Part shown: one piece after another, positions 3,250 through 55,544 of the stretch
Layout of the letters: each line of letters begins with the position of its first letter
Numbering within the stretch: the first letter of the stretch is position 1
From: an uncultured bacterium
GTDB taxonomy: Bacteria > Actinomycetota > Actinomycetes > JAVEEB01
NCBI GenBank assembly: GCA_964236265.1
Contig: CAXSDE010000004.1
Location: 32,331-96,330 of the forward strand
Reading direction: 5' to 3'
Length of the DNA: 64,000 bases
The notes under the pieces: model-generated
What the model saw: the letters and a program-made list of their open reading frames with translations, nothing else
Database searches by the model: none
What the model was told of the DNA's origin: nothing
Made by a program: the position numbers and the translations under genes

Positions 3250-4509
3250 GTGACCATCTCTGTCGAAGCGCCCGCGGGCGCCTTCGGTCCTGCCACCGCA
3301 CTCGTCTGTCGCGAATGTGGCACGACGTATCCCCTCGGCCCGCAGCACGTCTGCATCGAGTGCTTCGCACCCGTCGAGATGGGCTACGACGACGACCGGC
3401 TCGCAGCCGTCACCCGCGCGAGCATCGAGGCCGGCCCGCAGAACATCTGGCGGTACGCCGGGCTGCTCCCCGCCCCCGCCGAGGAGTTCCGCATCGGCGA
3501 CGGCGTCGGCATGACGAAGCTCATCCGCGCCGACAACCTCGCCCGCGCGCTCGGCATGAAATCCCTGTGGGTGAAGGACGATTCCGGCAACCCGACCCAC
3601 TCGTTCAAGGACCGCGTCGCCGCCGTCGCCCTGTCCGCAGCCAAAGCGCTCGGCTTCGAAACCGTGGCCTGCGCATCAACGGGCAACCTCGCGAACGCGG
3701 TCGCCGCCGCGGCGGCGCGGGCCAACCTCAAGTCGGTCGTGTTCATCCCCTCGGACCTCGAGCCGGCGAAGATCGTGACGACGGCCGTGTACGGCGGCCA
3801 GCTCGTCGCCATCGAGGGCACGTACGACGACGTCAACCGGTTGTGCAGCGAGGTGGCCGGTGAGTTGCCGTGGGCGTTCGTGAACGTCAACATCCGGCCG
3901 TTCTACGCGGAGGGTTCCAAGACGATGGGCTACGAGATCGCCGAGCAACTGGGTTGGCGCCTCCCGGAGCAGGTCATCAGCCCCATCGCGTCGGGCTCGC
4001 TGCTGACGAAGGTCGACAAGGCGTGGCGTGAATTCTCCAAGCTGGGCTTGGTGGACGGCACTCCGTACAAGGTGTTCGGCGCGCAGGCCGAAGGCTGCAA
4101 TCCGGTCGCCGCCGCCTACGAGGCGGGCCGTGACTTCATGATCCCCGTCAAGCCCGACACCATCGCCAAGTCGCTCGCGATCGGCAACCCGGCCGACGGC
4201 CCGTACGCCATCGACATCGCCCGCCGCACCGGCGGCGCCATCGGCCAGGTCACCGACGAGGAGATCGTCGACGGCATCCGGCTGCTGGCGTCGACCGAGG
4301 GCATCTTCGCGGAGACGGCCGGCGGCGTGACCGTCGCGACGCTGCGCAAACTGCTGCGCGAGGGCAAGGTCGACCCGGACGCCGAGACCGTGCTGCTCAA
4401 CACCGGCGACGGCCTCAAGACGATCGACGCGATCGACCACGCCGTCGGCCCGACGGTCACGATCAAGCCGTCCCTCGACGCCTTCCTGCAGACGGGCGTC
4501 GGCCAGTAG
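3250..4509 (+). CDS. thrC: threonine synthase
   Basis: GTG start preceded by GAGGAAAGG. N-terminal Cys4 zinc ribbon (CRECG...CIEC). PLP motif SFKDRVA. 419 aa, typical for actinobacterial ThrC. Confidence 0.9.
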   Translation: MTISVEAPAGAFGPATALVCRECGTTYPLGPQHVCIECFAPVEMGYDDDRLAAVTRASIEAGPQNIWRYAGLLPAPAEEFRIGDGVGMTKLIRADNLARALGMKSLWVKDDSGNPTHSFKDRVAAVALSAAKALGFETVACASTGNLANAVAAAAARANLKSVVFIPSDLEPAKIVTTAVYGGQLVAIEGTYDDVNRLCSEVAGELPWAFVNVNIRPFYAEGSKTMGYEIAEQLGWRLPEQVISPIASGSLLTKVDKAWREFSKLGLVDGTPYKVFGAQAEGCNPVAAAYEAGRDFMIPVKPDTIAKSLAIGNPADGPYAIDIARRTGGAIGQVTDEEIVDGIRLLASTEGIFAETAGGVTVATLRKLLREGKVDPDAETVLLNTGDGLKTIDAIDHAVGPTVTIKPSLDAFLQTGVGQ

Positions 4510-4546
4510 CTCGCCGGTCGGCACGCAGCGCCGCTAGATTGGCGCC

Positions 4547-6958
4547 ATGAGTCGACGGGTGGGGCGCGTCGAGAAAGACACGTGCCGCGATTTCGTGCTG
4601 CCCGCACTCGCGGCGGCAGGGTGGGGCCCGGACATGATTCGCGCGGAGTTCCCGGTTGCTGCGGATCGAGTGATGAGCCGGGGAGGCTTGAGCAGAGACA
4701 TCGGTGACGGCCGTGTCGACTACCTGCTCGAAGCCGTGCCTGGGGTGGCTGTGGCGCTTGTGGAGGCGAAACGTGAGTACCGGCAGCCGAAGCACGGGCT
4801 GCAGCAGGCGATCCGCTACGGGATGCAGCTCGACGTCCCGGTCGTCTATGCCACGAACGGGCGGGGGATCGTCGAACACAATTTCGTGACCGGAGCCGAA
4901 CGGGCTGTCGAGTCCGTGGCCACTCCGGCTGAGCTGTGGAGCCTGTACGCCGAATTCCGCGGTCTCGACGACGATGGGATGCAACTGGTCTGTCAGCCCT
5001 TCAACCGCCGGCGGACGACCGCCGCCGGTGACGTCGTGAGCCCGCGCTGGTACCAGGCAGTGGCTGTCCACCGGGTGCTTCAGGCGATCGCCACCGGCCG
5101 CGACCGGGTGCTGCTCTTGATGGCTACAGGGACAGGCAAGACCTTCACCGCGATGCAGATCGTGGCGAAACTCCGGGGTTTCGAGGCCATCAAGCATCCC
5201 GAACGGAACTATCGAGTCCTCTACCTCGCGGACCTCGACGTCCTTCTCTCCAGCCCGATGAAAAAGGACTTCATGCCGGCGTTCGGATCGGAGCCCCTCC
5301 ATCGCGTGAAGGGGGGCGCCTCCTTCAGTCGTGAGATCTACTTCGCGAGCTATCAGGCGATGACTGGACAAGGAGACGCCGACGCTCTCTTCGGCGACTA
5401 TCCACGTGATTTCTTCGACTTGGTCATCGTCGACGAGTGCCACCGGGGCAGCGCGTCGGCGGATTCCTCGTGGCGCCGGGTGCTCGACCATTTCGCGACC
5501 GCCGTGCAGCTGGGCCTCACGGCGACTCCGAAGCAGGACGCAGAGGTCGACAGCTACGAATACTTCGGTGACCCCGTTTTCACGTATTCACTGCGCCAGG
5601 GCATCGAGGAGGGGTATCTCGCGCCGTACCGGGTGCGCCGAGTCGTTCTGAGCCCGGACGCGGACGGCTGGTCGCCGTCGCCCGGCGAGCTCGACAGGTT
5701 CGGCCGAGACATCCCGGAGGGTAAGTACTCGACCAAAGATTTCGAGCGTGCCGTGTCATTGGTCGCGCGGACCAGGCTGGCCGCGCGTCACCTCTCGGCG
5801 ACCCTTCGGCAGGACCCTTCGGCTCGAACGATGGTGTTCTGCGTCGACATGGAGCACGCGCAGGATATGCGAACTGCCTTGGTCGAGGCCAACCCCGATC
5901 TCGTACGTGATGACCCGGAATGGGTGGTGCGCATCGTCGGTGACGAGCCCGAGAAGGTGCGGCTACTCGAAGCCTTCATGGACCCAGAGGCAAGCACGCC
6001 TGTCGTCGCGACGACCTCGAAGATGCTCTCGACCGGGGTCGACGTCGAGGACCTCAAGTTGGTCGTCCTCTTTCGCCCCGTGGGCTCGATGGTCGAGTTC
6101 AAGCAGATCATCGGCCGTGGCACTCGGCTCTATCCGGAGAAGGGCAAGACTTCCTTCGAGATCATCGACTACGTCGGAGCGAGCGCGAAGTTCAGCGATC
6201 CCGACTTCGACGGTGTGCCGATCCGCGTACGCATCGAGTCGGTCGACGCCGACGGCGACGTGACCACCTCCACGGAGGTGCCGACTGGCGTCGACACGCC
6301 GGAGTCTCCACAAGTGATGCTCGCCGAGCCGGTGCCGCCCTTCCTGGCACACAACCCGGACGAAGAGCTGATGCCGGGGACGGGGGACTCTCTTCGCGGG
6401 AAGCTCTACGTCGATGACGGCGAGTTCGAGGTCGTTGCGGAAGCGAGGCTGGTCCCGGACCTCTCGACCGGCCGGACGGTCTTGGTCGAATACCGCCAGT
6501 ATGTGGCCGGGGCCGTGCGGGCGATCTCCGTGTCCGCGGAAGAGTTCACCGAACGGTGGTCCAGCTCGACGACGCGCGAGGCAGTCCTGGCGGAGCTCGC
6601 ATCGCGGGGAGTGGTGCTGTCCGAGCTCGGGGGCGACGACGCGTCGGACCCGCTGGACCTTCTGCTGCAGGCAGCGTGGAACGTCCCCGGTCTCACGAGA
6701 TCCGAACGGGTCCGTCGCGTGCGGACGGCGCATGCAGGTGAGCTTGCCGCCCTGTCGGCCACCGCGCGCAACGTCCTCAGTGCGCTACTCGACCGCTACG
6801 CAACGCATGGCGTCGAAGAGATCATGTCGGGAGAGCTCCTCGTCGTCGAGCCCTTCCGCACCCTCGGGTCGCCGACCGAGCTGGCCGGCGCGTTCGGCGG
6901 AGCGGCAGCCTGGCATGAGTCAGTCGAAAGACTCCAGGCCTGGCTGTACTCAGCGTAA
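4547..6958 (+). CDS. hsdR: type I restriction enzyme R subunit (EcoEI-like HsdR)
   Basis: HSDR_N-like N-terminus. Helicase motif I LLMATGTGKTFTA and motif II VIVDECHRG. C-terminal EcoEI_R_C-like region. 803 aa. Confidence 0.9.
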   Translation: MSRRVGRVEKDTCRDFVLPALAAAGWGPDMIRAEFPVAADRVMSRGGLSRDIGDGRVDYLLEAVPGVAVALVEAKREYRQPKHGLQQAIRYGMQLDVPVVYATNGRGIVEHNFVTGAERAVESVATPAELWSLYAEFRGLDDDGMQLVCQPFNRRRTTAAGDVVSPRWYQAVAVHRVLQAIATGRDRVLLLMATGTGKTFTAMQIVAKLRGFEAIKHPERNYRVLYLADLDVLLSSPMKKDFMPAFGSEPLHRVKGGASFSREIYFASYQAMTGQGDADALFGDYPRDFFDLVIVDECHRGSASADSSWRRVLDHFATAVQLGLTATPKQDAEVDSYEYFGDPVFTYSLRQGIEEGYLAPYRVRRVVLSPDADGWSPSPGELDRFGRDIPEGKYSTKDFERAVSLVARTRLAARHLSATLRQDPSARTMVFCVDMEHAQDMRTALVEANPDLVRDDPEWVVRIVGDEPEKVRLLEAFMDPEASTPVVATTSKMLSTGVDVEDLKLVVLFRPVGSMVEFKQIIGRGTRLYPEKGKTSFEIIDYVGASAKFSDPDFDGVPIRVRIESVDADGDVTTSTEVPTGVDTPESPQVMLAEPVPPFLAHNPDEELMPGTGDSLRGKLYVDDGEFEVVAEARLVPDLSTGRTVLVEYRQYVAGAVRAISVSAEEFTERWSSSTTREAVLAELASRGVVLSELGGDDASDPLDLLLQAAWNVPGLTRSERVRRVRTAHAGELAALSATARNVLSALLDRYATHGVEEIMSGELLVVEPFRTLGSPTELAGAFGGAAAWHESVERLQAWLYSA

Positions 6959-6999
6959 ATTTTAGTTACAGGTCGTGAGACTCAGATGAAACTAAAAAT

Positions 7000-7623
7000 A
7001 TGGATGAGTGCTACGGTCGCTCAGTGCCCGGTCCCCGACAGGAGCTCCGTCAGAAACTGACGGCACTCGCCTTCTCGCAGTCTGGCTACTTCACGGCGTC
7101 TCAGGCTCTGTCGGTGGGCTACACCTACCAGGCGCAGAAATATCACGTCGACCACGGAAACTGGCTTCGGGTGGACCGCGCGCTTTTTCGCCTCCCCCAC
7201 TGGCCCGCCGATCGTGCCGACTCCTTCGTGCGGTGGTCGCTCTGGAGCGGCGGGCGGGGCGTCGTCTCCCACGAGTCCGCCCTGGCTGTGCACGAGTTGT
7301 CGGACATCGACCCCTCGCGCGTCCATCTCACCGTCGACCCCACTTTCCATACGCGAGACGACGCGGTGGTGCTTCACGTCGCACAACTCCGAGATGACGA
7401 GATCGACAGGCGTGGGGCGTGGGGCGTGACCACGCCTATGCGCACCCTTCTCGACGCCGCCGCCTCGGCCCTTTCCCAAGAGCATGTCGACGGCGCCGTC
7501 TCTGACGCCCTCCGGCTCGGACTCATCACGAGACGCGGTCTCCTCGCAGTGACGGATGGCAGCGACCTCATGGCTGCGCTGCGGCTCGAGCGCGCGTTGG
7601 CGAGTGCGGAGGCGCACCAGTGA
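7000..7623 (+). CDS. abiEi: AbiEi-family antitoxin / transcriptional regulator (type IV TA)
   Basis: 207 aa with the COG5340/AbiEi architecture (N-terminal wHTH, C-terminal domain). Its stop overlaps the GTG start of the downstream nucleotidyltransferase toxin gene (GTGA). It sits directly after an AT-rich spacer. Confidence 0.7.
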   Translation: MDECYGRSVPGPRQELRQKLTALAFSQSGYFTASQALSVGYTYQAQKYHVDHGNWLRVDRALFRLPHWPADRADSFVRWSLWSGGRGVVSHESALAVHELSDIDPSRVHLTVDPTFHTRDDAVVLHVAQLRDDEIDRRGAWGVTTPMRTLLDAAASALSQEHVDGAVSDALRLGLITRRGLLAVTDGSDLMAALRLERALASAEAHQ

Positions 7624-8490
7624 CGGGGTCCGACGCCGCACGCAATCTCGGCCATCGTGTGCGGGAAAGCGCTGCAGCGAGGGGGATCGACGCCGCGCGT
7701 CTGAGGCGTCAATTGGTATTTCAACGGATCCTGGCCCGTCTCGCCCCGACTGGCCTGTGGGTGCTCAAGGGCGGCTATTGCCTCGAAGTCCGGCTCGACA
7801 CGCAGGCGAGGGCGACTCGCGACCTTGACCTCGCTTTGCTGTCGTCCGTCGTTTCCACCGTGCTCGACGTCCAGGATCTCCTGGGCGCAGCCCTGGAAAC
7901 CGACGTCGACGGGGACGGGTTCCGCTTCGACGTGGAACTGCCCGTCGCGCTGGCAACGGATGAGGCGGGCAATCGAGGCTGGCGCGCCACCGTGCACGCG
8001 GCGCTCGGCGGCGAGAGATTCGCGTCCATCAAGCTCGACGTCGTCGCGCGCGCTGCGGAGATCGAGGGAGGGACGGAGACGCTCGACGTTCCCTGCCCGT
8101 TGCCCAGCTTGACGTACGACGCGGTCTCGATGCCGGCAGTGGACGTCGCGCAGCATGCGGCGGAGAAGGTGCATGCCTATTCGCGGGTCTATGCGAACGA
8201 CCGGCCGTCGACTCGGGTCAAGGATCTCGTCGACCTCGCCCTGCTTCTTGATGCCGAGCTCCTGGACGACGCGCGCTGGGCGGCGCGGCTGCGACATGTC
8301 TTCTCCGTCCGGGACTCATCGCCCCCTCCGCCTGCGCTTCCACCACCACCCGTCAGTTGGACCGGTCCGTACAAGGGCCATGGCCGCCGAGCTGTCGCTG
8401 ACAGGGACCGACGTGGTCGCAGCGTGGCAGCGGGTCAATGCGAAGTACGAAGGCGCGATCGACCCCACCATCCAGGAAGGCGCATCATGA
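7620..8490 (+). CDS. abiEii: AbiEii/AbiGii-family nucleotidyltransferase toxin (DUF1814), apparently frameshifted near 8375
   Basis: N-terminal NTase motif (KGGYCLEV...RATRDLDLAL) typical of DUF1814. The C-terminal about 40 aa (MAAELSLTGTDVVAAWQRVNAKYEGAIDP, stop 8488-8490) lie in the +1 frame. Frame 0 instead runs on, with no stop, into hsdM. Confidence 0.65.
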
Positions 8491-9989
8491 CCAGCCGCGG
8501 GCATAAGAACGCAGAGCCGATGACGACGCAGGCCCGGCTCTCGTCCGTCATCAAGGAGTCGCGAAACATCATGCGTAAGGACGCCGGCCTCAACGGCGAG
8601 CTCGATCGGCTGCCGCAGATGGCTTGGTTGTTGTTCCTCAAGGCTTTCGATGACTTGGAGGAGCAACGTGCCGTGAAGGAGCGCGGCTATCAGCCGGCCG
8701 TCGCGACGGAGTTTCGGTGGTCGTCGTGGGGCAGTGACAGTTCGCTGACAGGCGACCCGTTGCTCGTCTTCGTCAACAACCGCCTGCTGCCGCACCTGCG
8801 CGGCCTGCAGGGGTCGGGCAAGGCCACCGACCCTAAGGACACGCTCGCTCGCGTCTTCCAGGACACGCGCAACCGCATGCTGTCGGGCTACTTGCTGCGT
8901 GACCTGATCAACCAGCTCGACAAGGTGCAGTTCACCAACCGCGACGACATCCACACCATGGCTCACCTCTATGAGTCGATGCTGCGCGAGATGCGTGATG
9001 CCGCTGGTGACTCGGGAGAGTTCTACACCCCGCGGCCACTGGTGCGCTTCATGGTCGACATGATCGATCCGCGGCCTGGCGAGAAGGTGCTCGATCCGGC
9101 CGCCGGCACGGGTGGCTTCCTGGTGGAGGCATTCGAGCACATGACGGCCGACGCGACCCTGACGCCCACGGCCATGCGGAAAGTCAAGGACGGCATCCGT
9201 GGCATCGAGAAGAAGCCGATGCCCTACTTGCTCTGTCAGATGAACCTCCTCCTGCACGGCATCGAGGAGCCGAACGTCGATGAGGCGAACGCGCTCAACT
9301 TCGGTCTCGCCGAGATGCGCAAGGACGGCGTGGACGTCGTCCTGACCAACCCCCCGTTCGGCGGGGAGGAAGAGACCTTGATCCAGACGCACTTCCCGAC
9401 GAAGTACCGCACCGCTGAGACCGTGTGGCTGTTTTTGCAAGCGGTCATGGCTCGCCTGGAACGGAGTAAGTCGGGTCGCTGCGCGATCGTCGTACCCAAC
9501 AGCGTGCTCTTCGACCAGGGTGTGGGCGGACGTATCAAGGCTGACTTGATGGCGCGCTTCAACCTGCACACGGTGCTCCGGCTGCCGAACGGCGTCTTCG
9601 CGCCCTACACCCTCATCCCGAGCAATGTGCTGTTCTTCGAGAAGGGCAAGCAGGAGCCGCACATCTGGTTCTACGAGCATCCGATGCCGGAGGGTCGCAA
9701 GAACTACACGAAGACCAAGCCGTTGCGGTACGAGGAGTTCGAGGAGTGCGCGACGTGGTGGGGTGGATCGACGCGGAGCGGTCGTGTCGAGAACGAGCAC
9801 GCGTGGAAGGTTGAAGCAGCGTCCGTTAGGGCCGCTGGCTGCAACCTCGACCTGCGTAGCCCAAACCGCGCCGACGACCTCGTGCACCGAGCGCCTGCCG
9901 GTCTAGTCGCTGAGCTGATTGAGGTCGAGCAACAGATCCTCGACCTCCTCCGTCAGCTTCAGGTCGACGTGGAAGCCTTCACGATATGA
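8487..9989 (+). CDS. hsdM: type I R-M N6-adenine DNA methyltransferase subunit
   Basis: HsdM_N-like start (LWLLFLKAFDD). SAM-binding motif DPAAGTGGFLVEA. Catalytic NPPFGG. ATG overlaps the abiEii stop (ATGA). 501 aa. Confidence 0.9.
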   Translation: MTSRGHKNAEPMTTQARLSSVIKESRNIMRKDAGLNGELDRLPQMAWLLFLKAFDDLEEQRAVKERGYQPAVATEFRWSSWGSDSSLTGDPLLVFVNNRLLPHLRGLQGSGKATDPKDTLARVFQDTRNRMLSGYLLRDLINQLDKVQFTNRDDIHTMAHLYESMLREMRDAAGDSGEFYTPRPLVRFMVDMIDPRPGEKVLDPAAGTGGFLVEAFEHMTADATLTPTAMRKVKDGIRGIEKKPMPYLLCQMNLLLHGIEEPNVDEANALNFGLAEMRKDGVDVVLTNPPFGGEEETLIQTHFPTKYRTAETVWLFLQAVMARLERSKSGRCAIVVPNSVLFDQGVGGRIKADLMARFNLHTVLRLPNGVFAPYTLIPSNVLFFEKGKQEPHIWFYEHPMPEGRKNYTKTKPLRYEEFEECATWWGGSTRSGRVENEHAWKVEAASVRAAGCNLDLRSPNRADDLVHRAPAGLVAELIEVEQQILDLLRQLQVDVEAFTI

Positions 9990-11125
9990 CCGTCTCGTGG
10001 TCGCCGGCGGGGCGAGTCCTTGAGTTGCAACGGCGTTCGGTCGAAGTTCTGACCGACCAGGAATATCATGAAATCGGTGTCAGATCGTTTGGCAAGGGCC
10101 TGTTTCAGAAGGAGCCGACGAGCGGTGCTAGCCTCGGTGACAAGCGGGTCTTCTGTGTCCGTACGGGTGACCTAGTCATCAGCAACGTGTTCGCATGGGA
10201 GGGAGCCGTTGCAGTCGCTGGGCCGGAACACGACGGCATGATTGGCTCTCATCGCTTCATGACATGGACATCGCGCGGCGACGTTGATGTCAGCTACCTC
10301 CGTCACTATTTTCTGTCCGATCCAGGGCTGGGCAATCTGCGTCGGGCCTCGCCGGGATCAGCCGGCCGAAACAGAACGTTGTCGATCGCGGCGTTCGAGG
10401 CCATTAAGGTGCCTCTGCCGAGCCTGACCGAACAGCGTCGGATTGCAGATCATTTAACGGACCTGGGCGCGATGTCCGACGTCGCTCGCACAGCGACGGA
10501 TCGACTCAAGGCCACTAGTCACAGCATCTTCGATCGATTGGTGCTAGTCCCCGACCACAGCAAGTACCCACTTGGAGACGTCGTACAGCTAGCTCGCGAG
10601 TCGGTCGATGTTGTTCCTGACAGGTCTTACAAGACCCTCGGTCTGAAGAATCGTGGGCGGGGATTGTTCGAGCGCGCGGAGTTTACGGGGGGCGAAACGA
10701 AGTATCCGCGGCTCTTCGCGGTGAGGTCCGGTCAGCTGGTCTACAGCAAGTTGTTCGGATGGGAGGGTTCGGTTGCCATAGTTCCAGATCGATTCGATGG
10801 GCGGTTCGTGTCGCCGGAGTTCCCAACGTTTGACGTCGACGCGGAGCACATTCTGCCCGACTACCTGGAGCACTTGGCCCAACACCAAGCATTTACCAGT
10901 CAGCTGGCGTCCTCAACGACGGGCATGGGGCAGCGTCGTCAGCGCGTGAACATCGACGATTTTCTTAACATCGACGTTCCTGTGCCGAGCGTTTTGGAAC
11001 AGCAGTCCATCGTCCGGCAGCTGGATCAAGTCAGGCACCTCGATCTCCTCATGCGCAACCGAGCTCGCCTTGCCGACGCGCTTCTCCCGGCCGCTCGGAA
11101 CGAGATTTTCAACGCGATGCGCTGA
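9986..11125 (+). CDS. hsdS: type I R-M specificity subunit
   Basis: Two target-recognition-domain halves with conserved HsdS spacer/coiled regions. Start overlaps the hsdM stop. GC content is visibly lower than the flanks. Confidence 0.85.
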   Translation: MTVSWSPAGRVLELQRRSVEVLTDQEYHEIGVRSFGKGLFQKEPTSGASLGDKRVFCVRTGDLVISNVFAWEGAVAVAGPEHDGMIGSHRFMTWTSRGDVDVSYLRHYFLSDPGLGNLRRASPGSAGRNRTLSIAAFEAIKVPLPSLTEQRRIADHLTDLGAMSDVARTATDRLKATSHSIFDRLVLVPDHSKYPLGDVVQLARESVDVVPDRSYKTLGLKNRGRGLFERAEFTGGETKYPRLFAVRSGQLVYSKLFGWEGSVAIVPDRFDGRFVSPEFPTFDVDAEHILPDYLEHLAQHQAFTSQLASSTTGMGQRRQRVNIDDFLNIDVPVPSVLEQQSIVRQLDQVRHLDLLMRNRARLADALLPAARNEIFNAMR

Positions 11126-11783
11126 CACTCGACCATTGGTCGCCGGCGACTATCACGTGATCGAGGAGCCGCAAACCTACGTCTGCACTGGAGCCTTGCA
11201 GTCGCTGGGTCGCTGCCACGTCGTCCGCGCTCGGGGCAACAGTCCCGCCGGGATGGTTGTGGGCAAGCGCGAACGACAACCCGTCATGGCGAAGCACGAG
11301 TGACAGGATTTCGCGGATCGGAACGGCGCAGTGACTTGCCGACCCCCGTGCGACGAGCACCGTCCGTCGTACACGATGTTGGTTGTCGGCGACCAGTAGC
11401 AGCAACTCTTCCACGGCGGTGTGGCCGATCAGGGGAACTGCAATGGCTGCAATGTCAGCCGACGACGCCAACGACCGGCCCTCGGGTGCCCCGATCGCCC
11501 GCCGCGCCAACGCGAACGCCGAGACCAGCCGGGCAGCCTTCGCGGGACCGATGCCGTGGCGGCGTGCGAGCTCGTCGGTGTCCGCCCGCGCGAGCCCGGC
11601 TACACCGCCCCACTCGGCGAGAAGCGCCTGCGCAAGGTCGAGGGCGCTTTCGCCGGGCCGACCAGACCCCAGCTGAATCGCGACGAGTTCCGCGTCGGAG
11701 AGCGATCGTGCGCCGTGCCGCTGCATTCGCTCCCGAGGCCGCTCATGGTTTGCCATGTCTCTGAGCGGTGTGCTGGGACTCAT
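11109..11783 (-). CDS. radC: RadC-like JAB/MPN-domain protein
   Basis: Helix-hairpin-helix N-terminus (ERPRERL...LSDAELVAIQLG) and JAMM motif HNHPGG. Convergent with hsdS, with a 17 bp overlap. The internal Met at 11756 is a possible start. Confidence 0.8.
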   Translation of the reverse strand: MSPSTPLRDMANHERPRERMQRHGARSLSDAELVAIQLGSGRPGESALDLAQALLAEWGGVAGLARADTDELARRHGIGPAKAARLVSAFALARRAIGAPEGRSLASSADIAAIAVPLIGHTAVEELLLLVADNQHRVRRTVLVARGSASHCAVPIREILSLVLRHDGLSFALAHNHPGGTVAPSADDVAATQRLQGSSADVGLRLLDHVIVAGDQWSSVSASR

Positions 11784-19185: not shown

Positions 19186-19951
19186 TCAGAAGCCGGGAAA
19201 GACGGCCTTCACGTCATCGAACGACACACCGGCCGCGTCGAGGACGGCGCCATCGGCGCCGTCGAGCCGTCCGTAGACCAGGCGGATGAGCTGTTCGGCC
19301 GGCAGCGTCAGCGTGCCGTCCGCCTGCTCTGGGGCCCCGGCGGTCAGCGTCGAGGACTCGCCGCCCCGCAGCGCGAACTCGCGTCCCGGGCCCGTCGTCG
19401 TGACCGCCAGCGTGAAGGTCTTGTCGCTCGGCTTGGCTGCCCAGCGCGCGGTGCGCGGTGCGCGTGTCGACGAGCAGCGCCGACGCGTCTGCGCTGAGGA
19501 CCGCGCCCGGCTCACGCATCACAGCGATGTCCCACGTGTGCACGGCGTGCTCGGCAAGGCGGATGCCGACAACCCCCGCGAGGTCGAACTCCATCCCGAG
19601 CCACGACAGGTGCGCCGACTCGCGCTCCGCCGGCGGGATGTCCAGCAGGCGCTGCACGGCGGCGGCGTCGGTCGAAATGGCGTCGGCGGCCTTCTCCTCG
19701 GGCGTCTTGGCGTTCCAGCGGTCCCAGATCGGCTGCATCTGCTGGCCGCCGGGCGCCTCGCCGCCGGTGAGGGCCGCCGTCGTCATGAGGGCGCTGTGTT
19801 CGGCGCCGCTGCCGAGGTGGGACAGGACGTCCGCGATGGTCCATTCGCGTACGACGGGCTGCGCACGTCGTCGGCGCCCAGATCCGCCGCCAGCTTCGCG
19901 AGGCGCTGGTGCGAGTTGCGCAGGGCGTCGGTCCAGGGCTGGGCGTCACTC
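19186..19951 (-). pseudogene. mycothiol-dependent maleylpyruvate-isomerase-like (DinB_2 / TIGR03083 family) gene with two frameshifts
   Basis: Three successive frames carry the N-terminal (MSDAQPWTDALRNSHQRLAKLAADL), middle (EWTIADVLSHLGSGAEH... inferred, ...MTTAALTGGEAPGG) and C-terminal (KTFTLAVTTTGPGREFAL...LIRLVYGRLD) parts of one family member. Confidence 0.55.
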
Positions 19952-20004
19952 ATGTGCGGGTCCTCCGGGTGCAGGGGGCGAAAACGTCGTACAGGAAAGG
20001 ATTG

Positions 20005-20330
20005 TCAGACGGCGCAGGCGGCGTCGATGCACGACGCGTCGTCGCCCCCGCCGGCCATGACGATGGGGTGGGCTGACGCCCAGGCTTGCCGCAACATGCC
20101 GAGTGGCACGTCCGCGGGCTGCGCCGGAGAGCCGTAGCGCCGGTCGGCGACGAAGAACGGCACGCCGCTGATGCCGAGCGCCGGCGCCTCGGCGATGCCC
20201 GCGGCGAGGTGGAGAACGCGGTGCACGTCGAGCGTGTTGCCCGAGAGTCGGACCAGATCTCGACCTGCACGGGGCGCCTCCACGAAGTTGAGCGTTAACG
20301 TCACCCAACGCGCGGCGATCGCCGATCCTT
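20005..20330 (-). pseudogene. DsbA/FrnE-like thioredoxin-fold gene fragment (C-terminal part only)
   Basis: ISGVPFFVADRRYGSPAQPADVPLGMLRQA resembles the FrnE/DsbA C-terminus. Sequence upstream in the same frame is non-coding-like. Confidence 0.3.
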
Positions 20331-20453
20331 CCGCACTCCGTCGTTGGAGGAAACCTCCAGAACCGCCGGGTGAACGCGGTGCCCTACCGGCATCGGCAGC
20401 GCCTGCCGGCGCCGACACGATGCTCCTCGGCAACGACATCCACTGGAGGAACC

Positions 20454-21044
20454 ATGACGACATTTCTGCCGCCGCTCGCTGGGCGCCGCCGGGTGCTGGC
20501 GGACGCGTGGGCGCCCCGGGTGTCCCCGGCTGCGCGTTCCGCGGCACTCGTGGTGGCCGGGGCCGCTCTGGTCGGCCTGTGCGCCCAGCTGTCGCTGCGT
20601 GTGCCGGGCACGCCCGTGCCGGTGACCGGCCAGACGTTCGCGGTGCTGCTCGTCGGGGCCGCGCTCGGCTGGCGGGACGCCGGCCTGTCGATGGCGCTCT
20701 ATGCGGTTGCCGGGAGTCTCGGGGTGCCCTGGTTCGCGCACGGCGGGTCCGGGTGGGCGGTGACCTTCGGCTACGTGCTCGGGTTCGTCGTGGCCGCCGC
20801 GGTGGTGGGGCGCCTCGCCGAGCGGGGCGGCGACCGGTCCCCGCTGCGGACGGCCACCACGATGGTGCTCGGGACGGCGCTGATCTATGCCATCGGCGTG
20901 CCGTGGCTCGCGCATGCCGTGCACGTGTCCCTGCCCCGCGCGTGGGCCCTCGGTGCGCGACCCTTCCTCGTCGGCGACGCGCTCAAGGTGCTGCTGGCGG
21001 CCGGGCTGTTGCCCGGAGCGTGGGCGGCCCTGCATCGCCGCTGA
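20454..21044 (+). CDS. bioY: biotin transporter BioY
   Basis: ATG after GGAGG. The 196 aa sequence carries BioY hallmarks (VPGTPVPVTGQTFAVLLVGAALG...GVPWFAHGGSG...GYVLGF). Confidence 0.85.
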   Translation: MTTFLPPLAGRRRVLADAWAPRVSPAARSAALVVAGAALVGLCAQLSLRVPGTPVPVTGQTFAVLLVGAALGWRDAGLSMALYAVAGSLGVPWFAHGGSGWAVTFGYVLGFVVAAAVVGRLAERGGDRSPLRTATTMVLGTALIYAIGVPWLAHAVHVSLPRAWALGARPFLVGDALKVLLAAGLLPGAWAALHRR

Positions 21045-21360
21045 CCGTGACCGGTCCCCGACACGGCGACGTGTCAGGCTGCGGAACACGACGGCAGCGT
21101 CGCGCTCGCGGTGGGAGGCGGGCCCGCCGCATCGTGGGTCGAGTCGTGGGACAGCGCAAGATCGGTACGGCGATGGCGGCCGCCGTTGCGCAAGCGGTCA
21201 CTGCCGCCGTCACGACGCGTCGGCGACGCACGCTGCGGCGAGCGGCCGACACCAGCCGGCCCACCGGGGCGTCGGGCGAGGACCCGTCGGCGGCCGCCCG
21301 CAGGAGGGTGCGGATGCGTTCGTCGTCAGCCATGGCGCGGTTCCGTTTCCTCGTGGTCGT

Positions 21361-21540
21361 CAGCCTCCGACAGGTCCTCGAAGTAGCGCAGGACGAGCAC
21401 CGCCCGCTGCTGCGGAGGAAGGGCAGCTTCTCGGTGGGGCGCTCGTCACCCCTGAGCAGGAAGCCCAGCCGCGCGAGCCCGTCGTACCGGAGCCGCACGA
21501 ACTCACTGAACTGCTCGTCGCGCGCTCCCGACGGACCCAT
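21361..21540 (-). pseudogene. remnant of an ECF (SigE-family) sigma factor, with the start of a downstream anti-sigma-like ORF
   Basis: Region-2-like FSEFVRLRYDGLARLGFLLRGDERPTE is followed, after a frameshift, by region-4-like QRAVLVLRYFEDLSEA and a stop. An adjacent MADDERIRTLLRAAADGSSPD... resembles anti-sigma N-termini but runs into non-coding sequence. Confidence 0.3.
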
Positions 21541-34997: not shown

Positions 34998-37754
<2,757 letters not shown>

Positions 37755-41706: not shown

Positions 41707-44700
41707 ATGTCGGACACCACCTCAGGTCGGGGACCCACCACTGTTTCGCGCGGGATGCGCGCGTTGCTCAGCGCCGTGCTCGTCGCCGCCTCGATGCTGT
41801 TCGGCGCCGTCACTGCCACCAGCGCGAACGCGACAGGACCGACGCTGACGGTGACGCCGAGCTCCACCGTGCGCGTCCCGCCGAGTGGGTCGACGGGCCT
41901 GTCGGGTCTCACGGTGTCGGGGGATGCGATCGACGACCTCACGGTCACCGTTGCCACGGACTTCGCCACGTTGAGCGTCGGCACGACCACCAACGTCGTC
42001 CTCGGCTACAACAACAGCTGGACCGGCACGCAGTCGGTCACCTTCTCGGGTCTGCAGTCCGACATCGACACGGCCCTGGCTTCCGTCTCGCTCGTGACGA
42101 CCGGGACGACCGGCACGGCGCACGTGTCGCTGACCGCGTTCGTGTCGCAGGCGGGGCTGTATTACCTGGCCAGCAACCAGCACTTCTACCAGTACGTCGC
42201 GAGCCCCTCGGTGACGTGGACGACCAGCGACATCAACGCCCGCGCCTCCAGTTTCCAAGGCCAACAAGGCTATCTCGCCACGATCCCCAACGACACGGTC
42301 AACGCATTCATCTCCACGAAGATCGCCAACGCCACCAACATCTGGTTCGGCGCGCGAGCATATGAAGCCGCCGCCACGGACGGTTCCCAGTCGTATGCGG
42401 TCGTCGGCGGAACGACCTACGCGCGGGTGTGGCGCTGGGCGGTCGGCGCCAACGAGAGTCCCATCCAGGGCACGGTCATCAGCGAGTGCACCAACGCGGC
42501 CGGCGCCTGCACGTTCCAGAACGCCGGGAGTTTCTACAGCAGCTGGGCCGGCGGCGAACCCAACAACTTCAACGTGAACGGCGCCGTCGCGTACGCGGGC
42601 GAGTACGTCGCCGTCACCAACTGGAGCGGCACTCTCGGCAAGTGGAACGATTTGCCGCCGGGCAACACGGGCACCAGCGGCTACGTCGTCGAGTACGGCG
42701 GCCGGACCAACGCCGACGCCTCCTTGGGCACGGGCTTCGCCGGTGTCGTGACGGCCACGGGCACCACGACGGTCGCCAACGCACCGGCCGTCCCCGCCGC
42801 CCCCGTTCTCAACGGAGTGCGCGGCGACACCGTGATCGACCTGTCGTGGACCCCGCCGAACGACGGTGGCTCCTCGATCACGGGTTATGAGAGCTCCGTC
42901 AACGGCGGCGCGTGGGCCACCCAGCCGACGACGTCGAGCAACGCGGTCGTCAACGGCAACGTCGTCACCACGGTCGCCGCGACGCTCACCGGTCTCACGA
43001 ACGGCACGTCGTACACCGTGCAGGTCCGTGCGTTGAGCAGCGCCGGCACGGGCGCCGCGAGCAACACCGTGACGCTGACGCCCGCGGCGGTGCCCGGCGC
43101 CCCGACCATCGGCACGGCGACCGGTGGCAACGCGCAGGCGACCGTCGCCTTCACCCCGCCGGGCGCCACCGGCGGCTCGGCCATCACGTCCTACACCGTG
43201 ACCTCCGGACCCGGCACGCCGGTGACGGCGACGTGCGCGGCGAGCCCCTGCACCGTCACGGGTTTGTCGAACGGCGCCTCCTACGTGTTCACCGTGCACG
43301 CCACCAACGCGGCCGGCTCGGGAGCCGAATCGGGTGCGTCCACCTCCGTCACGCCGATGACCGTGCCGGGTGCGCCGACGGTTCTCGCCGCGACGCGCGG
43401 CAACGGTTTCGCGAGCGTCGCGTTCGCGGCGCCCGCGAGCAACGGTGGCTCGCCCATCACCGGCTACACCATGACGACCTCACCGGGCGGCGCGACGGTG
43501 GCCTGCTCCGCCAGCCCGTGCGTGAAGAGCTCGCTCACCAATGGGACGGCCTACACGTTCACCATCCACGCGACCAACGTCGTGGGCAACAGCGTCGAGT
43601 CGGCGGCGTCCAACAGCGTCACTCCGGCGACCACCCCGGGAGTCCCGACCGGCGTCTCGGCGGTGCGTGGCAATGCGTCCGCGGTCGTGACCTGGACGGC
43701 GCCCGCGTCGACGGGCGGCTCCGCGATCACCAGCTACGTCGTGTCCGTCCACCCCGGCAGCGGCACGCAGTCGTGCGGCAGCCCGTGCACGGTCAGCGGC
43801 CTGACGAACGGCACGTCCTACACGTTCTCCGTGCACGCCGTGAACGCCGTTGGCGCCGGCACGGAGTCGGCCAACTCCGCTGCCGTCACCCCGGCCGGGC
43901 CCCCGAGCGCGCCGAGCGGACTCGTCGTCACCCGCGGCGACCAGACGGCCGTGGTCTCGTTCACGGCTCCCGGCGCGAACGGGTCAGCGATCACGGGCTA
44001 CGAGGTGTCCATCAACGGCGGGACCACGTGGCAGTCGCTGGCCACCGCCGGTTCGCCCACGGTCACGGGAACCGTGACCGGCTTGACGAACGGCACCAGT
44101 TACCCGGTGACCGTGCGGGCGGTGAACGCCATCGGCGCGAGCCCGCAGGCGACGCCGCAGGCCGTCACTCCCGCGACGGTCCCCGGCGCGCCGGGCACCC
44201 CGTCGGTGCTGCGCGGCGCGTCGCAGGTCAGCGTGAGCTGGACCGCGCCGGCGAGCAACGGCGGCGACCCGCTCACCGGCTACACGGTGACCTCGAGCCC
44301 GGGTGGCAACACCTGCACGGCGGCGGCCGCCGCGACGTCGTGCACCGTGACGGGGCTGACCAACGGCACCAGCTACACCTTCACGGTCCACGCGAGCAAC
44401 ACCGTCGGCAACGGCAGCGAGTCACCGGCGTCGGCCGCGGCTGTTCCGATGACGACGCCCGGCGCGCCGACGGGCGTGTCCGGTGTGCCGGGTGACCAGT
44501 CGGTCTCCGTCAGCTTCAGTGCGCCGGCCTCGAACGGCGGCAGCGCCATCATCTCGTTCACGGTGACCGCGTCCCCGGGGGGCGCCACCGCGACCTGCAG
44601 TGCGTCGCCGTGCGTCGTGCCCGGCCTGACCAACGGCACCGCCTACACGTTCACCGTGCACGCGGCCAACAGCATCGGCAACGGGGCGGAGTCCGCACCG

Positions 44701-47283
44701 TCCCCGTCCATCACCCCGATCACGGTCGCGGGGCCGCCGACCGCGGCAGCCGCCAGTCGCGGCGACGGGCAAGCGGTCGTGACGTTCGCGCCACCCGCGG
44801 CCAACGGCGGCGGCGCCATCACCGGTTACCGCGTCACGACGCATCCCGGCGGCGCCGTCCTGCTGTGCGCGGCGAGCCCGTGCACCGTCGGCGGACTGAC
44901 GAACGGCACCGCCTACACCTTCACCATCGCCGCCATCAACGCCGCGGGCCCGGGCCCCGATTCGGCACCGACGGCTCCAGTGACGCCGGCCACGCTGCCG
45001 GACGCGCCGACGGCCGTCACCGCGACACGCGGCGACTCGTCCGCGGCGGTGACGTTCAACGCGCCGCCGTCGGACGGCGGTTCGGCGGTCACCGGCTACA
45101 CCGTCACCGCGTCACCGTCGGGGATGACGGGCTCGTGTGCGGTCAGCCCGTGCACCGTCAGCGGCCTCACGAACGGCACCTCCTACACGTTCACCGTGCA
45201 CGCCACGAACGCGATCGGCGACAGTGTGGAGTCCGTGCCGTCCACCGCTGTCACACCGGCCACCGTGCCGGGCGCCCCGACAGGGGTGGGCGCGACCGCG
45301 GGCGACTCGTCCGCCGTCGTGACGTTCACGGCGCCCGTTGCCACCGGCGGATCCGCCGTCACCGGATACCGCGTCACGGCGCAGCCGGGTGGGTCGGTCA
45401 CGCTCTGCGCCGCCAGCCCGTGCGCGGTCAGCGGTCTCACGAACGGCACCGCATACACCTTCGTGGTCGCCGCCGGCAACGCCGTCGGGACGGGACCCGA
45501 CTCCGCCGCCTCCGCCGCCGTCGCCCCCGCCGGTGCACCGGACGCCCCGACCGCCGTCGGCGCCGTCGCTGGTGACCAGTCCGCGTCGGTCAGCTTCAGT
45601 GCGCCGGCCTTCGACGGCGGCTCGCCGATCACCGGCTACACCGTCAGCGCCAGCCCCGGCTCCGCGACGGTCTCGTGCGCAGCGTCCCCGTGTGTCGTGT
45701 CCGGGTTGACCAATGGGTCCTCGTACAGCTTCACCGTGCACGCCACGAACGCCATCGGCAGCGGTCCGGAGTCCGCGGCCTCCACCCCGGTCGTGCCCGG
45801 GCCCGTGCCGGCCGCACCGACAGGAGTCACTGCCGCCGCCGGGAACGCCGGAGCCGTCGTCACATGGACGGCGCCGAGTGACGGTGGGACGCCGATCACC
45901 GGTTACTCCGTGACCGTCTCGCCGGGCGGCGGGGTCACCACGTGCACGAGTCCCTGCACGATTGCGGGGCTGACGAACGGCGTCTCGTACACGTTCACCG
46001 TCACCGCGACGAACAGCGTCGGCACCGGGGCCGCGTCCGCGCCGTCGGCCGCCGTGACCCCCGCCGCCGTGCCCGACGCTCCGACGGCCGTCGGTGCGAC
46101 GCCCGGCGACGGCCTCGTGACCGTCACCTTCACCGCGCCGGGATCCGACGGCGGGACGCCCATCACCGGTTACCGCGTCACGGTGACGCCCGGCGGTGCC
46201 GCGACGCTGTGTACGGCGAGTCCGTGCACCGTTTCCGGGTTGACCAACGGCACGCCGTACACGGTCACCGTGGCCGCGATCAATGCGGTCGGCACCGGCC
46301 CGGACTCCGCGTCGTCGGCCGCCGTGACACCGGTCGCACCCGCGCCTTCGGTCACGCCGACTCCGACGGTGTCGAGCACTCCGACGGTGTCGGCTACTCC
46401 GACGGTGTCGGCTACTCCGACGGTGTCCGCTACCCCTAGCGCATCGACTACCCCGACCGGTTCTGTCTTCCCGACCGTGTCCGCTACCCCGACCGGGTCC
46501 GCTACCCCGACCGGGTCCGCTACCCCAACCGGGTCCGCTACCCCAACCGGGTCCGCTACCCCGGCGCCCACCCCCTCGAGCCCCCCGACGTCGGTCAGCC
46601 CGGGCAGCAAGCCGCCGGTGCCGCAGGGCATCCGCGCCGTTCCCGGCAACGCCCGCGTGACGATCAGCTGGTCGACGTTCGCCGGCGCCGGCGTCTCGGC
46701 GGTGACGACCTACACGGTGACCGCGCAGCCGGGTGGCGGCACCTGCTCGACGACCGGGTCCTCGTGTGTCGTGGAGCCGCTGACGAATGGCAAGACCTAC
46801 CGCTTCTCGGTCGTCGCGGCGAACCTCGTCGGTGCAAGCGCGCCGTCCGCCGTGGTGAGCGCGATGCCCGCCGGGCCCCCGTCGGCGCCGGTGGCGCCGG
46901 CCGTCGACGGGTCGGGCACGTCGGTGACCGTCACGTGGCAGGTGCCGGCCCACCTGTTCGGGTCGACCATCACCGGCTACACGGTCACCGCGGCACCGGG
47001 CGGCGCCACGTGCACACCGACGCCGGAAACGGCGACATGGTGCGTGGTGTCCGGGCTCACCGCGGGGAGGGCCTACACCTTCCGCGTCGTCGCGCACAGC
47101 ACGGCCGGCGACTCGGACGTGAGCCTCAGCTCCCGTCCGGTGCAGATCGTCGCCGCCGGGCCGTCGCTGTCCTACACCGGCGCCCCGATCGAGCAGATCC
47201 TCGTTCTCGGCCTCGTTCTGGTCGGTCTCGGCACCGCCGCGACCACGGTCGGTCGCCGCCGCCGTCGCCCCGACGCCGCATGA
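41707..47283 (+). CDS. giant cell-surface protein: signal peptide, C-type lectin domain, about 18 fibronectin type III repeats, Pro/Thr linker, sortase-like anchor
   Basis: Signal MRALLSAVLVAASMLFGAVTATSANA. CTLD motifs (WFGA, GEPNN, WND). About 16 consecutive 88-aa FN3 units with the consensus GGS.ITGY.VT.SPGG...C.ASPC.V.GLTNGT.YTFTV, plus two more after the linker. C-terminal LSYTG followed by a hydrophobic stretch and RRRRR. Confidence 0.85.
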   Translation: MSDTTSGRGPTTVSRGMRALLSAVLVAASMLFGAVTATSANATGPTLTVTPSSTVRVPPSGSTGLSGLTVSGDAIDDLTVTVATDFATLSVGTTTNVVLGYNNSWTGTQSVTFSGLQSDIDTALASVSLVTTGTTGTAHVSLTAFVSQAGLYYLASNQHFYQYVASPSVTWTTSDINARASSFQGQQGYLATIPNDTVNAFISTKIANATNIWFGARAYEAAATDGSQSYAVVGGTTYARVWRWAVGANESPIQGTVISECTNAAGACTFQNAGSFYSSWAGGEPNNFNVNGAVAYAGEYVAVTNWSGTLGKWNDLPPGNTGTSGYVVEYGGRTNADASLGTGFAGVVTATGTTTVANAPAVPAAPVLNGVRGDTVIDLSWTPPNDGGSSITGYESSVNGGAWATQPTTSSNAVVNGNVVTTVAATLTGLTNGTSYTVQVRALSSAGTGAASNTVTLTPAAVPGAPTIGTATGGNAQATVAFTPPGATGGSAITSYTVTSGPGTPVTATCAASPCTVTGLSNGASYVFTVHATNAAGSGAESGASTSVTPMTVPGAPTVLAATRGNGFASVAFAAPASNGGSPITGYTMTTSPGGATVACSASPCVKSSLTNGTAYTFTIHATNVVGNSVESAASNSVTPATTPGVPTGVSAVRGNASAVVTWTAPASTGGSAITSYVVSVHPGSGTQSCGSPCTVSGLTNGTSYTFSVHAVNAVGAGTESANSAAVTPAGPPSAPSGLVVTRGDQTAVVSFTAPGANGSAITGYEVSINGGTTWQSLATAGSPTVTGTVTGLTNGTSYPVTVRAVNAIGASPQATPQAVTPATVPGAPGTPSVLRGASQVSVSWTAPASNGGDPLTGYTVTSSPGGNTCTAAAAATSCTVTGLTNGTSYTFTVHASNTVGNGSESPASAAAVPMTTPGAPTGVSGVPGDQSVSVSFSAPASNGGSAIISFTVTASPGGATATCSASPCVVPGLTNGTAYTFTVHAANSIGNGAESAPSPSITPITVAGPPTAAAASRGDGQAVVTFAPPAANGGGAITGYRVTTHPGGAVLLCAASPCTVGGLTNGTAYTFTIAAINAAGPGPDSAPTAPVTPATLPDAPTAVTATRGDSSAAVTFNAPPSDGGSAVTGYTVTASPSGMTGSCAVSPCTVSGLTNGTSYTFTVHATNAIGDSVESVPSTAVTPATVPGAPTGVGATAGDSSAVVTFTAPVATGGSAVTGYRVTAQPGGSVTLCAASPCAVSGLTNGTAYTFVVAAGNAVGTGPDSAASAAVAPAGAPDAPTAVGAVAGDQSASVSFSAPAFDGGSPITGYTVSASPGSATVSCAASPCVVSGLTNGSSYSFTVHATNAIGSGPESAASTPVVPGPVPAAPTGVTAAAGNAGAVVTWTAPSDGGTPITGYSVTVSPGGGVTTCTSPCTIAGLTNGVSYTFTVTATNSVGTGAASAPSAAVTPAAVPDAPTAVGATPGDGLVTVTFTAPGSDGGTPITGYRVTVTPGGAATLCTASPCTVSGLTNGTPYTVTVAAINAVGTGPDSASSAAVTPVAPAPSVTPTPTVSSTPTVSATPTVSATPTVSATPSASTTPTGSVFPTVSATPTGSATPTGSATPTGSATPTGSATPAPTPSSPPTSVSPGSKPPVPQGIRAVPGNARVTISWSTFAGAGVSAVTTYTVTAQPGGGTCSTTGSSCVVEPLTNGKTYRFSVVAANLVGASAPSAVVSAMPAGPPSAPVAPAVDGSGTSVTVTWQVPAHLFGSTITGYTVTAAPGGATCTPTPETATWCVVSGLTAGRAYTFRVVAHSTAGDSDVSLSSRPVQIVAAGPSLSYTGAPIEQILVLGLVLVGLGTAATTVGRRRRRPDAA
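46360..46562. repeat. in-frame 18 bp tandem repeats (PTVSAT x3, PTGSAT x4) in the Pro/Thr linker of the giant protein
   Basis: ACTCCGACGGTGTCGGCT and ACCCCGACCGGGTCCGCT units. Confidence 0.7.
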
Positions 47284-55395: not shown

Positions 55396-55471
55396 ACGTC
55401 CCCCAACAACAGCCGCTCGCCGGCGCTTCCGCGCGCGAGGGGTCGTCCACGTCGGCCGTGCCGACTGTGCG

Positions 55472-55544
55472 TGCCCCCGGCAGGATTCGAACCTGCGACA
55501 CACGGTTTAGGAAACCGATGCTCTATCCCCTGAGCTACGGGGGC
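55472..55544 (-). tRNA. tRNA-Arg (anticodon CCT)
   Basis: 73 nt cloverleaf read by hand. Acceptor stem GCCCCCG/CGGGGGC. D-arm GCTC/GAGC. Anticodon loop TTCCTAA. T-arm GCAGG-TTCGAAT-CCTGC. Discriminator A. Confidence 0.9.

Follow-up and report, generated by a model that had tools for sequence, protein, structure and literature searches.

An open reading frame on the forward strand of an actinobacterial contig joins most of an AbiEii nucleotidyltransferase (NTase) toxin to a complete type I methyltransferase, HsdM, in one predicted protein of 789 amino acids. Such a frame could represent a functional toxin-methylase fusion, a toxin gene broken by mutation, a sequencing or consensus error, or a site of ribosomal recoding. 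The question is which of these readings fits the locus. All positions refer to the window, which is the whole 64,000-nt stretch of DNA that was analysed.

Gene content of the cassette

The 789-aa frame lies in a six-gene cassette in which an abiEi-abiEii pair is located between hsdR and hsdM. The features are as follows.

4547-6958, forward: hsdR, type I restriction subunit, intact (Pfam ResIII, Helicase_C and EcoEI_R_C)
6959-7023, forward: hsdR-abiEi spacer, 65 nt, AT-rich, probable AbiEi operator and promoter
7024-7623, forward: abiEi, antitoxin/regulator of the COG5340 type, intact (PADLOC AbiEi, E=4.8e-64)
7620-8378, forward: 5′ part of abiEii in frame A, native residues 1 to ~252 (Pfam AbiEii, E=1.8e-23)
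8373-8379, forward: indel site AAGGGCC with one surplus base (homologue alignment after removal of one base)
8381-8490, forward: native 3′ part of abiEii in frame B (MAAELSL...EGAS, then stop), now untranslated
8474-8480, forward: Shine-Dalgarno-like AGGAAGG, 6 nt 5′ of the hsdM ATG
8487-9989, forward: hsdM, type I methyltransferase, intact (Pfam HsdM_N and N6_Mtase; PADLOC MTase_I, E=2.2e-175)
9986-11125, forward: hsdS, two target-recognition domains, intact (Pfam Methylase_S; PADLOC Specificity_I, E=8.7e-71)
11109-11783, reverse: radC-like JAB-domain gene, convergent (Pfam RadC and UPF0758_N)

These matches bear out the gene identities given in a preliminary description of the same DNA, with toxin and methylase domains recognised by Pfam and AbiEi, AbiEii and MTase_I by PADLOC; the antitoxin/regulator that it had called live is intact. 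The hsdR product matches PADLOC REase_I over residues 9-801 (E=1.7e-185) and is collinear with its homologues over residues 6-803. The hsdM product corresponds to the C-terminal 500 aa of the 789-aa frame in the present sequence, and HsdM homologues of ~500 aa (57-78% identity) start at the identical position. By Pfam, PADLOC and collinearity, HsdR, HsdM and HsdS are all present and full length, as expected of a type I restriction-modification (R-M) enzyme. The genes abiEi, abiEii, hsdM and hsdS are linked in a chain by 4-nt overlaps: GTGA at 7620-7623, where the abiEi stop meets the abiEii GTG in a bicistronic pair, ATGA between the native abiEii stop (TGA, 8488-8490) and the hsdM start (ATG, 8487-8489), and ATGA again between hsdM and hsdS. 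The radC-like gene overlaps the end of hsdS by 17 nt. G+C content is 0.59-0.68 in the cassette and 0.70-0.74 in the flanks.

Position and sign of the frameshift

The ORF listing gives a frame from GTG 7620 to 9989 on the forward strand that is open to the end of hsdM, as had been described earlier, and that comprises AbiEii residues 1-252 and the entire HsdM. Its Pfam domains are AbiEii (PF08843) at residues 41-237 (profile positions 9-192 of 238), HsdM_N at 309-432 and N6_Mtase at 444-748. The +1 frame at 8381-8490 encodes the native AbiEii C-terminus, MAAELSLTGTDVVAAWQRVNAKYEGAIDPTIQEGAS, and stops at the TGA at 8488-8490; the translations agree with the earlier reading on this tail and on the overlap of its stop with the hsdM ATG. 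The switch, placed near 8375 in that description, lies in TAC AAG GGC C/ATG (8370-8383). The toxin is not found as one uninterrupted frame of ~290 aa, since the frame changes at codon ~253.

The sign of the lesion is opposite to that first proposed, a 1-nt deletion or 2-nt insertion. Codons of the tail begin one base later than the register set at 7620, a +1 shift from the upstream to the downstream frame that means a surplus of one base or a shortage of two; the lesion is therefore a 1-nt insertion (or a 2-nt deletion). Removal of any single base within 8373-8379 yields a 289-aa protein. Alignment to intact AbiEii homologues, a check suggested earlier, was gapless across the junction for all 21 of them (278-309 aa, 47-59% identity), with SWTGPYK[A/G]MAAEL in the repaired protein and SWTGPYAAMAxELGL in the homologues. 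In the repaired protein the invariant W247 also stands at its usual distance from the conserved L258 and Y276, and PADLOC AbiEii PDLC02291 matches over residues 4-282 (E=6.7e-70). The Pfam AbiEii model stops short of the C-terminal 46 profile positions even for the repaired protein; the junction, which Pfam could not place, was placed by homologue alignment and PADLOC. Most simply, the lesion would be GG to GGG at 8375-8377, and its reversal would restore Y-K-A-M; this is the most economical reconstruction because Ala precedes Met in most homologues, with an extra A or C as alternatives. Judged from the reading frames, abiEii at this locus is a disrupted AbiE member, by pseudogenisation or by error, and not an intact one.

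Why the open frame continues into hsdM

An open path from the toxin into the methylase gene follows from the arrangement of the genes. Owing to the ATGA overlap, hsdM is in the -1 frame relative to the native 3′ end of abiEii, and therefore any net +1 insertion in abiEii sets its 5′ part in the hsdM frame. In the same off-frame of the five cassette genes, stop codons occur at a frequency of 0.023 per codon, giving a probability of ~0.43 that 36 off-frame codons contain no stop. The read-through is no more than chance, and because a stop-free stretch of this length is likely, the joined frame is an expected by-product for which selection is not needed.

The linker itself bears on the time of the event. 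As the preliminary description had it, the linker is Arg-rich (12 Arg), although its length is 36 aa (H254-I289) rather than 38. It does not have coding-type composition in the frame now used, where GC3 is 0.51, compared with 0.82 in the native frame and 0.78-0.85 in the cassette genes. The linker is without adaptation, and the frameshift event is either recent or not real.

Search for a conserved fusion

A natural toxin-methylase fusion had been offered as one explanation, to be recognised by its consistent presence in orthologues. For the family comparison, one genome per species was taken, giving 43 related loci onto which the six window proteins were mapped. Across these species representatives abiEii ran into hsdM in none of the 32 loci with a downstream hsdM, and in none of the 43 overall. 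Similarly, none of the best 150 hits in a HMMER search of 1.84 billion cluster representatives matched both halves of the 789-aa protein; the best AbiEii-type match there covered query residues 10-253 and ended at the frame change. Together with the off-frame codon usage of the linker, these results leave the natural fusion unsupported.

When the 789-aa protein was searched against 5.8 billion proteins, the only sequences among the best 120 to carry both domains were the query itself and P0146, a 795-aa protein from the same six-gene cassette in a JGI metagenome (3300086412, locus L046). P0146 keeps the entire AbiEii with its C-terminal helices, and its frame goes on without a TGA (…TCA ATG CCC…). 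Read-through frames were also found at the hsdM-hsdS overlap (P0173 and P0232). From their sequences, these sporadic singleton fusions at 4-nt overlaps look like accidents.

A functional fusion, in which the 789-aa protein is made and selected and tethers the AbiEii NTase to the methyltransferase, would draw on the open frame with every NTase motif kept, on the second in-frame junction in L046, where the AbiEii C-terminus is complete, and on the conserved, tight translational coupling of abiEii to hsdM, which makes a joint function plausible. Against this, the 789-aa version destroys conserved and confidently folded helices (see below), its linker has off-frame codon usage, the two fusion frames are singletons of different origins, the species representatives and best cluster-representative hits contain no such fusion, and the hsdM-hsdS read-throughs suggest that overlapping junctions fuse by accident. 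We regard a functional fusion as very unlikely.

What the toxin loses and keeps

In a 22-sequence alignment the NTase residues K50-G51-G52, D68/D70, D140 and K183...D202 were invariant, and all lie upstream of the shift; motifs I-IV were defined as hGG, DhD, hDh and K...D (PMC3985639). T66 is also invariant and aligns with S78 of Rv1045/MenT3, the phospho-acceptor of that toxin (PMC11375011). By analogy, T66 is the probable phospho-acceptor of the abiEii product.

For P0001, the closest intact homologue, AlphaFold gave a model with mean pLDDT 92.8 from a 60-sequence alignment. Its C-terminal helices, residues 246-259 and 266-285, had pLDDT values of ~94-98, and the model superposed on the MenT3/Rv1045 crystal structures over their full length (TM 0.80). 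The confidence of these helices and the full-length superposition indicate that the lost segment is part of the fold. In the model, the shift at codon ~253 is predicted to remove half of the penultimate helix and the whole of the last. The shifted toxin, with its catalytic motifs all retained, is probably inactive.

Mutation, artefact or recoding

The reading we lean towards, with modest confidence, is real pseudogenisation of abiEii, that is, a recent and non-adaptive decay of the toxin in a retained module rather than an evolved fusion. One surplus base, most simply the third G at 8375-8377, would have been inserted into the NTase toxin gene of an AbiE pair embedded between hsdR and hsdM of a conserved actinobacterial type I R-M cassette. 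Ribosomes starting at GTG 7620 would leave the native frame after residue ~252 and miss the stop at 8488-8490; being then already in the hsdM frame, they would continue to 9989 and make AbiEii(1-252)-36 aa-HsdM. The toxin would probably be inactive; abiEi, hsdR, hsdM and hsdS stay intact. Free HsdM could presumably still be made from its own Shine-Dalgarno sequence and ATG, and independent initiation is plausible because AGGAAGG sits 6 nt before the ATG.

A sequencing or consensus artefact, in which the organism has an intact 289-aa AbiEii ending at 8490, is a real but rather unlikely alternative. Run ERR10807086 has also been assembled in Logan with a different assembler, and one contig of that assembly (L001, 3,523 nt) is identical to positions 4981-8503, including the GGG; a second (L002) is identical to 9582-11493, with hsdS identical. 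That a second assembler gives the same 3.5 kb argues against an artefact; the Logan and deposited contigs probably derive from the same reads, however, and a systematic read error would therefore be reproduced. The run is only three G, a poor substrate for homopolymer errors. On the other hand, the contig appears to be metagenome-assembled, its proteins are singletons in a 15-billion-protein collection, and the Logan contig number, which exceeds 250,000, indicates that the run is a metagenome. The frame-B tail is perfectly preserved (L258, W, Y276; GC3 0.82), as an artefact would predict, but this is equally expected for a very recent mutation.

The best AbiEii homologue in the databases was only 63% identical, with no closer relative found. 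The three possible repaired AbiEii proteins, with M or V as first residue, were absent from the 15-billion-protein collection, as was HsdM starting at 8487 or 8520.

Other genes of the window were compared for similar damage. At least three other broken genes are present in the 64 kb: a GT2 gene, an MDMPI-like gene and an ECF sigma remnant. In the GT2 gene, CAAGGGGC near 2699 contains a surplus G, only the first half of the Pfam domain is retained and a DUF222/HNH gene is adjacent; the MDMPI-like gene has two frame changes, the first of which is spanned by the Pfam MDMPI_N alignment. These lesions came from a codon-usage Viterbi parse of the window, which made 23 calls, about one third of them ordinary overlapping gene boundaries and several others repeats or artefacts; only calls confirmed by eye and by Pfam were used. 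This parse replaced a scan of GC3 "tails", which was too crude and left abiEii itself without a flag. An ORF at 20005-20547, considered as a DsbA/FrnE remnant, had no Pfam match and was left out of the comparison.

The damage can be read in two ways. At least five further indels or truncations in three other genes, and an extra G in CAAGG(G)C at both of the insertions that could be resolved, fit an error-prone consensus. Yet the lesions cluster in the same few genes, as in real pseudogenes and unlike errors, which are distributed uniformly. Clustered lesions and truncations suit real pseudogenes better than uniform error, with a locally poor consensus as the alternative. Real broken copies of abiEii are also common in the cassette family (see below), a further point against an artefact.

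Programmed +1 ribosomal frameshifting, restoring a low level of full-length AbiEii and so throttling toxin dosage, is extremely improbable. Its only points are the intact native tail and the restoration of the frame by a +1 shift in AAG-GGC-C. The site has no stop, no rare or clearly hungry codon and no recognised slippery pattern; the homologues are single-frame, the five broken ones differ in position and there is no conserved shift site. Functional fusion and recoding taken together remain quite improbable.

The cassette family and recurrent breakage of the toxin

The complete order hsdR-abiEi-abiEii-hsdM-hsdS with a convergent radC, in the same orientation, was found in 29 of the 43 related loci, among them members of the genera Agromyces, Agrococcus, Nocardioides, Knoellia, Terrabacter, Janibacter, Geodermatophilus, Blastococcus, Isoptericola, Cellulosimicrobium, Tersicoccus and Gordonia and several MAGs. 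The gene hsdM is directly 3′ of abiEii in 32 loci, and in 23 the two genes share an ATGA or GTGA that contains both the abiEii stop and the hsdM start, with a purine-rich stretch of the GGAG/GAAGG type shortly 5′ of it (by eye). The radC-like gene, kept at the same position and orientation in ~30 related loci, is a conserved sixth member. By gene content and order, the present locus is an ordinary member of this family except for the frameshift.

Among 41 evaluable species representatives, abiEii was broken in five, each time at a different position:

L004, Pseudonocardia MAG: shift near residue 239
L035, Tersicoccus phoenicis isolate: 1-nt deletion right after W247
L041, Gordonia sp. B7-2, complete chromosome: shift near residue 45 and a stop
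L043, Bifidobacteriaceae MAG: shift near residue 197
L045, Blastococcus haudaquaticus DSM 44270: two shifts

These include one complete chromosome and two isolate genomes. Breaks were found in 0/41 AbiEi, 0/31 HsdM and one or two of 31 HsdR, together 1-2/103 for the neighbours (Fisher's exact test, one-sided p=0.007 with one HsdR break, or p=0.02 when the truncated HsdR of L017 is counted). AbiEi breaks flagged automatically in five loci were false, the stop in each lying upstream of the true start. The number of sequencing errors in a gene should scale with its length; the excess of breaks in the toxin points to a genuine and repeated decay of this gene, in which the antitoxin/regulator is spared.

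The spacer and the reach of its putative operator

The hsdR-abiEi spacer contains a 9-nt inverted repeat, ATTTTAGTT (6959-6967) and AACTAAAAAT (6990-6999), and a -10-like hexamer, TACGGT (7012-7017), 6 nt before GTG 7024. In 29 of the 43 related loci the abiEi start is preceded, at a distance of 34-45 nt, by a box of the AACTAAAG type, and in many a TAnnnT hexamer was seen by eye 6-7 nt before the start codon. By analogy with the autoregulation of AbiE systems by AbiEi (PMC3985639), the spacer probably contains an AbiEi operator and a promoter. In several homologues the V/M-P-G-P start of AbiEi is preceded by stop codons; abiEi therefore probably starts at GTG 7024 and not at ATG 7000, and its mRNA is probably leaderless.

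An AbiEi-type operator may control the methylase and specificity genes as well, because abiEi, abiEii, hsdM and hsdS form a chain of 4-nt overlaps; such reach would account for the survival of the antitoxin in loci with a decayed toxin. A further proposal is that the two layers of this cassette family, AbiE and the type I R-M enzyme, are integrated into a single system. Expression of abiEi-abiEii-hsdM-hsdS as a translationally coupled unit would depend on a leaderless promoter in the spacer under the control of AbiEi, and AbiEii would act with, or be guarded by, the methyltransferase in a manner like PrrC/EcoprrI. If this were true, the two independent read-throughs of the 789-aa frame and of L046 would be "Rosetta-stone" hints of a physical association between AbiEii and HsdM. 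We consider such an integrated system unlikely.

Comparison with known systems

AbiE is a type IV toxin-antitoxin and abortive infection system composed of AbiEi and AbiEii, described in Lactococcus and Streptococcus agalactiae (Dy et al., 2014, PMC3985639). The present pair resembles it in the bicistronic arrangement of abiEi (a wHTH antitoxin/repressor) and abiEii (a DUF1814 NTase) with overlapping stop and start, in NTase motifs I-IV, in the inverted repeats upstream of abiEi and in the Pfam and PADLOC matches. It differs in its place between hsdR and hsdM, where its translation is coupled to that of hsdM and the pair is not free-standing, and in the interruption of the toxin ORF.

The closest solved structure is that of MenT3/TglT (Rv1045), which is paired with MenA3/TakA (Rv1044) in Mycobacterium tuberculosis (PDB 6Y5U, 6J7S and 7C48; PMC7450476, PMC7205606, PMC11375011). 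Beyond the superposition and the correspondence of its S78 position to T66 noted above, it matches in sequence with E=1e-8, aligned to residue 274, but is only ~26% identical to the present AbiEii. For MenT3, NTase activity on the tRNA acceptor stem and antitoxin-induced autophosphorylation are known; for the present AbiEii they would be predictions. The M. tuberculosis Rv1044-Rv1045 pair is not known to lie inside an hsd operon.

Defence genes embedded in type I R-M loci form a general pattern, described in a "guilt-by-embedding" survey (bioRxiv 10.1101/2024.01.29.577857). The present locus and 29-32 related ones share with PrrC/EcoprrI the location of an abortive-infection toxin gene within a type I hsd operon. 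PrrC, however, is an ABC-ATPase/anticodon nuclease without an antitoxin gene, and the R-M complex itself keeps it latent, whereas the toxin here is a DUF1814 NTase with its own antitoxin and is not of the PrrC type. In EPEC, the DarTG2 toxin-antitoxin system is embedded in a type I R-M locus and controlled by the repressor RptR (PMC12255303). Both this system and the present cassette place a toxin-antitoxin module within a type I R-M operon and have a small DNA-binding regulator as well as repeats in the promoter. DarT, in contrast, is an ADP-ribosyltransferase, and the toxin family, regulator and phylum all differ; here, regulation probably falls to the antitoxin itself. A literature search for an AbiE-in-hsd cassette returned only the general concept of embedding and other embedded toxin-antitoxin systems.

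Implications

The right annotation of this locus is a frameshifted abiEii pseudogene and a separate hsdM, not a 789-aa "type I M protein". More generally, where genes in GC-rich genomes overlap by the 4-nt ATGA, any +1 indel in the upstream gene gives an apparent domain fusion, and frames derived from such overlaps systematically add false "Rosetta-stone" fusions to metagenome protein catalogues, as exemplified by the 789-aa frame, P0146, P0173 and P0232.

The frameshift itself affects a known kind of module, AbiEi/AbiEii; the cassette and the toxin-biased decay within it are the more interesting by-products of the analysis. That the toxin breaks preferentially while the antitoxin/regulator is kept fits a second job for the antitoxin, which may, for example, be the regulation of the methylase genes.

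Conservation of the cassette

The broken abiEii lies within a cassette that has related loci within L005-L045 (loci from species-representative genomes):

4547-11783: hsdR-abiEi-abiEii-hsdM-hsdS with a convergent radC-like gene

All six genes were retained in 29 of the 43 actinobacterial loci, and in 23 of them the abiEii stop codon shares an [AG]TGA with the hsdM start codon. A literature search found no description of the hsdR-abiEi-abiEii-hsdM-hsdS-radC cassette specifically. The G+C content of the cassette region (window 4500-11500) is 0.59-0.68 versus 0.70-0.74 in the flanks, as expected of horizontally acquired DNA. No tRNA gene was found near the cassette; the sole tRNA gene of the window is at 55471-55544.

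Broken abiEii in other species

Frameshifts or stops in abiEii were found in five further species (L004, L035, L041, L043 and L045), in each at a different site, and the antitoxin gene was unbroken in all five. Including the window, a Pro/Gly-rich stretch (residues 239-253) was the break site in 3 of the 6 broken copies.

Read-through ORFs at gene overlaps

Open frames running across gene overlaps were also present in other proteins recovered by homology search:

L046 6001-8388: second cassette with abiEii to hsdM read-through (metagenome contig, JGI metagenome 3300086412, protein P0146)
P0173: 685 aa, HsdM homologue running into an HsdS-like half with one target-recognition domain
P0232: 713 aa, same arrangement, from a MAG of Gordonia amarae

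In P0146, a singleton fusion, the whole of AbiEii, including the C-terminal helices, is joined in frame to HsdM, and the junction reads TCA ATG CCC, without TGA. Both P0173 and P0232 read through the junction where hsdM overlaps hsdS, a counterpart of the abiEii-hsdM case.

Other disrupted genes and repeats in the window

Further genes with interrupted frames, and one neighbor, were annotated on the minus strand:

1057-2446, -: DUF222/HNH-type gene, directly adjoining the next
~2536-2981, -: GT2 (GpgS-like) glycosyltransferase gene, frame-disrupted
19186-19990, -: MDMPI_N + MDMPI_C gene, mycothiol-dependent maleylpyruvate isomerase-like
~21330-21540, -: ECF sigma factor remnant

The GT2 gene has one surplus G in CAAGGGGC near 2699 and covers only positions 1-87 of the 168 in the Pfam profile. 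The MDMPI-like gene is split into three frame segments by frameshifts near 19440 and 19880. The sigma factor remnant retains, in differing frames, a region-2-like start and a partial region 4 that covers positions 9-31 of the 54 in its Pfam profile, and is followed by a probable anti-sigma gene (N-terminus MADDERIRTLL).

Separately, short tandem peptide repeats were observed on the plus strand: pentapeptide units in an ORF near 37500 (~37480-37620), and TPTVS(A/S) units near 46350 (~46330-46440) in a very long ORF (41755-47283).

The hsdR-abiEi spacer

6959-7026: AT-rich spacer with inverted repeat ATTTTAGTT/AACTAAAAAT

The spacer contains a AACTAAAG box common across the cassette family. A -10-like TACGGT is located 6 nt upstream of GTG 7024, which is probably the abiEi start, on a leaderless mRNA. 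The predicted spacer promoter may drive hsdM and hsdS as well.
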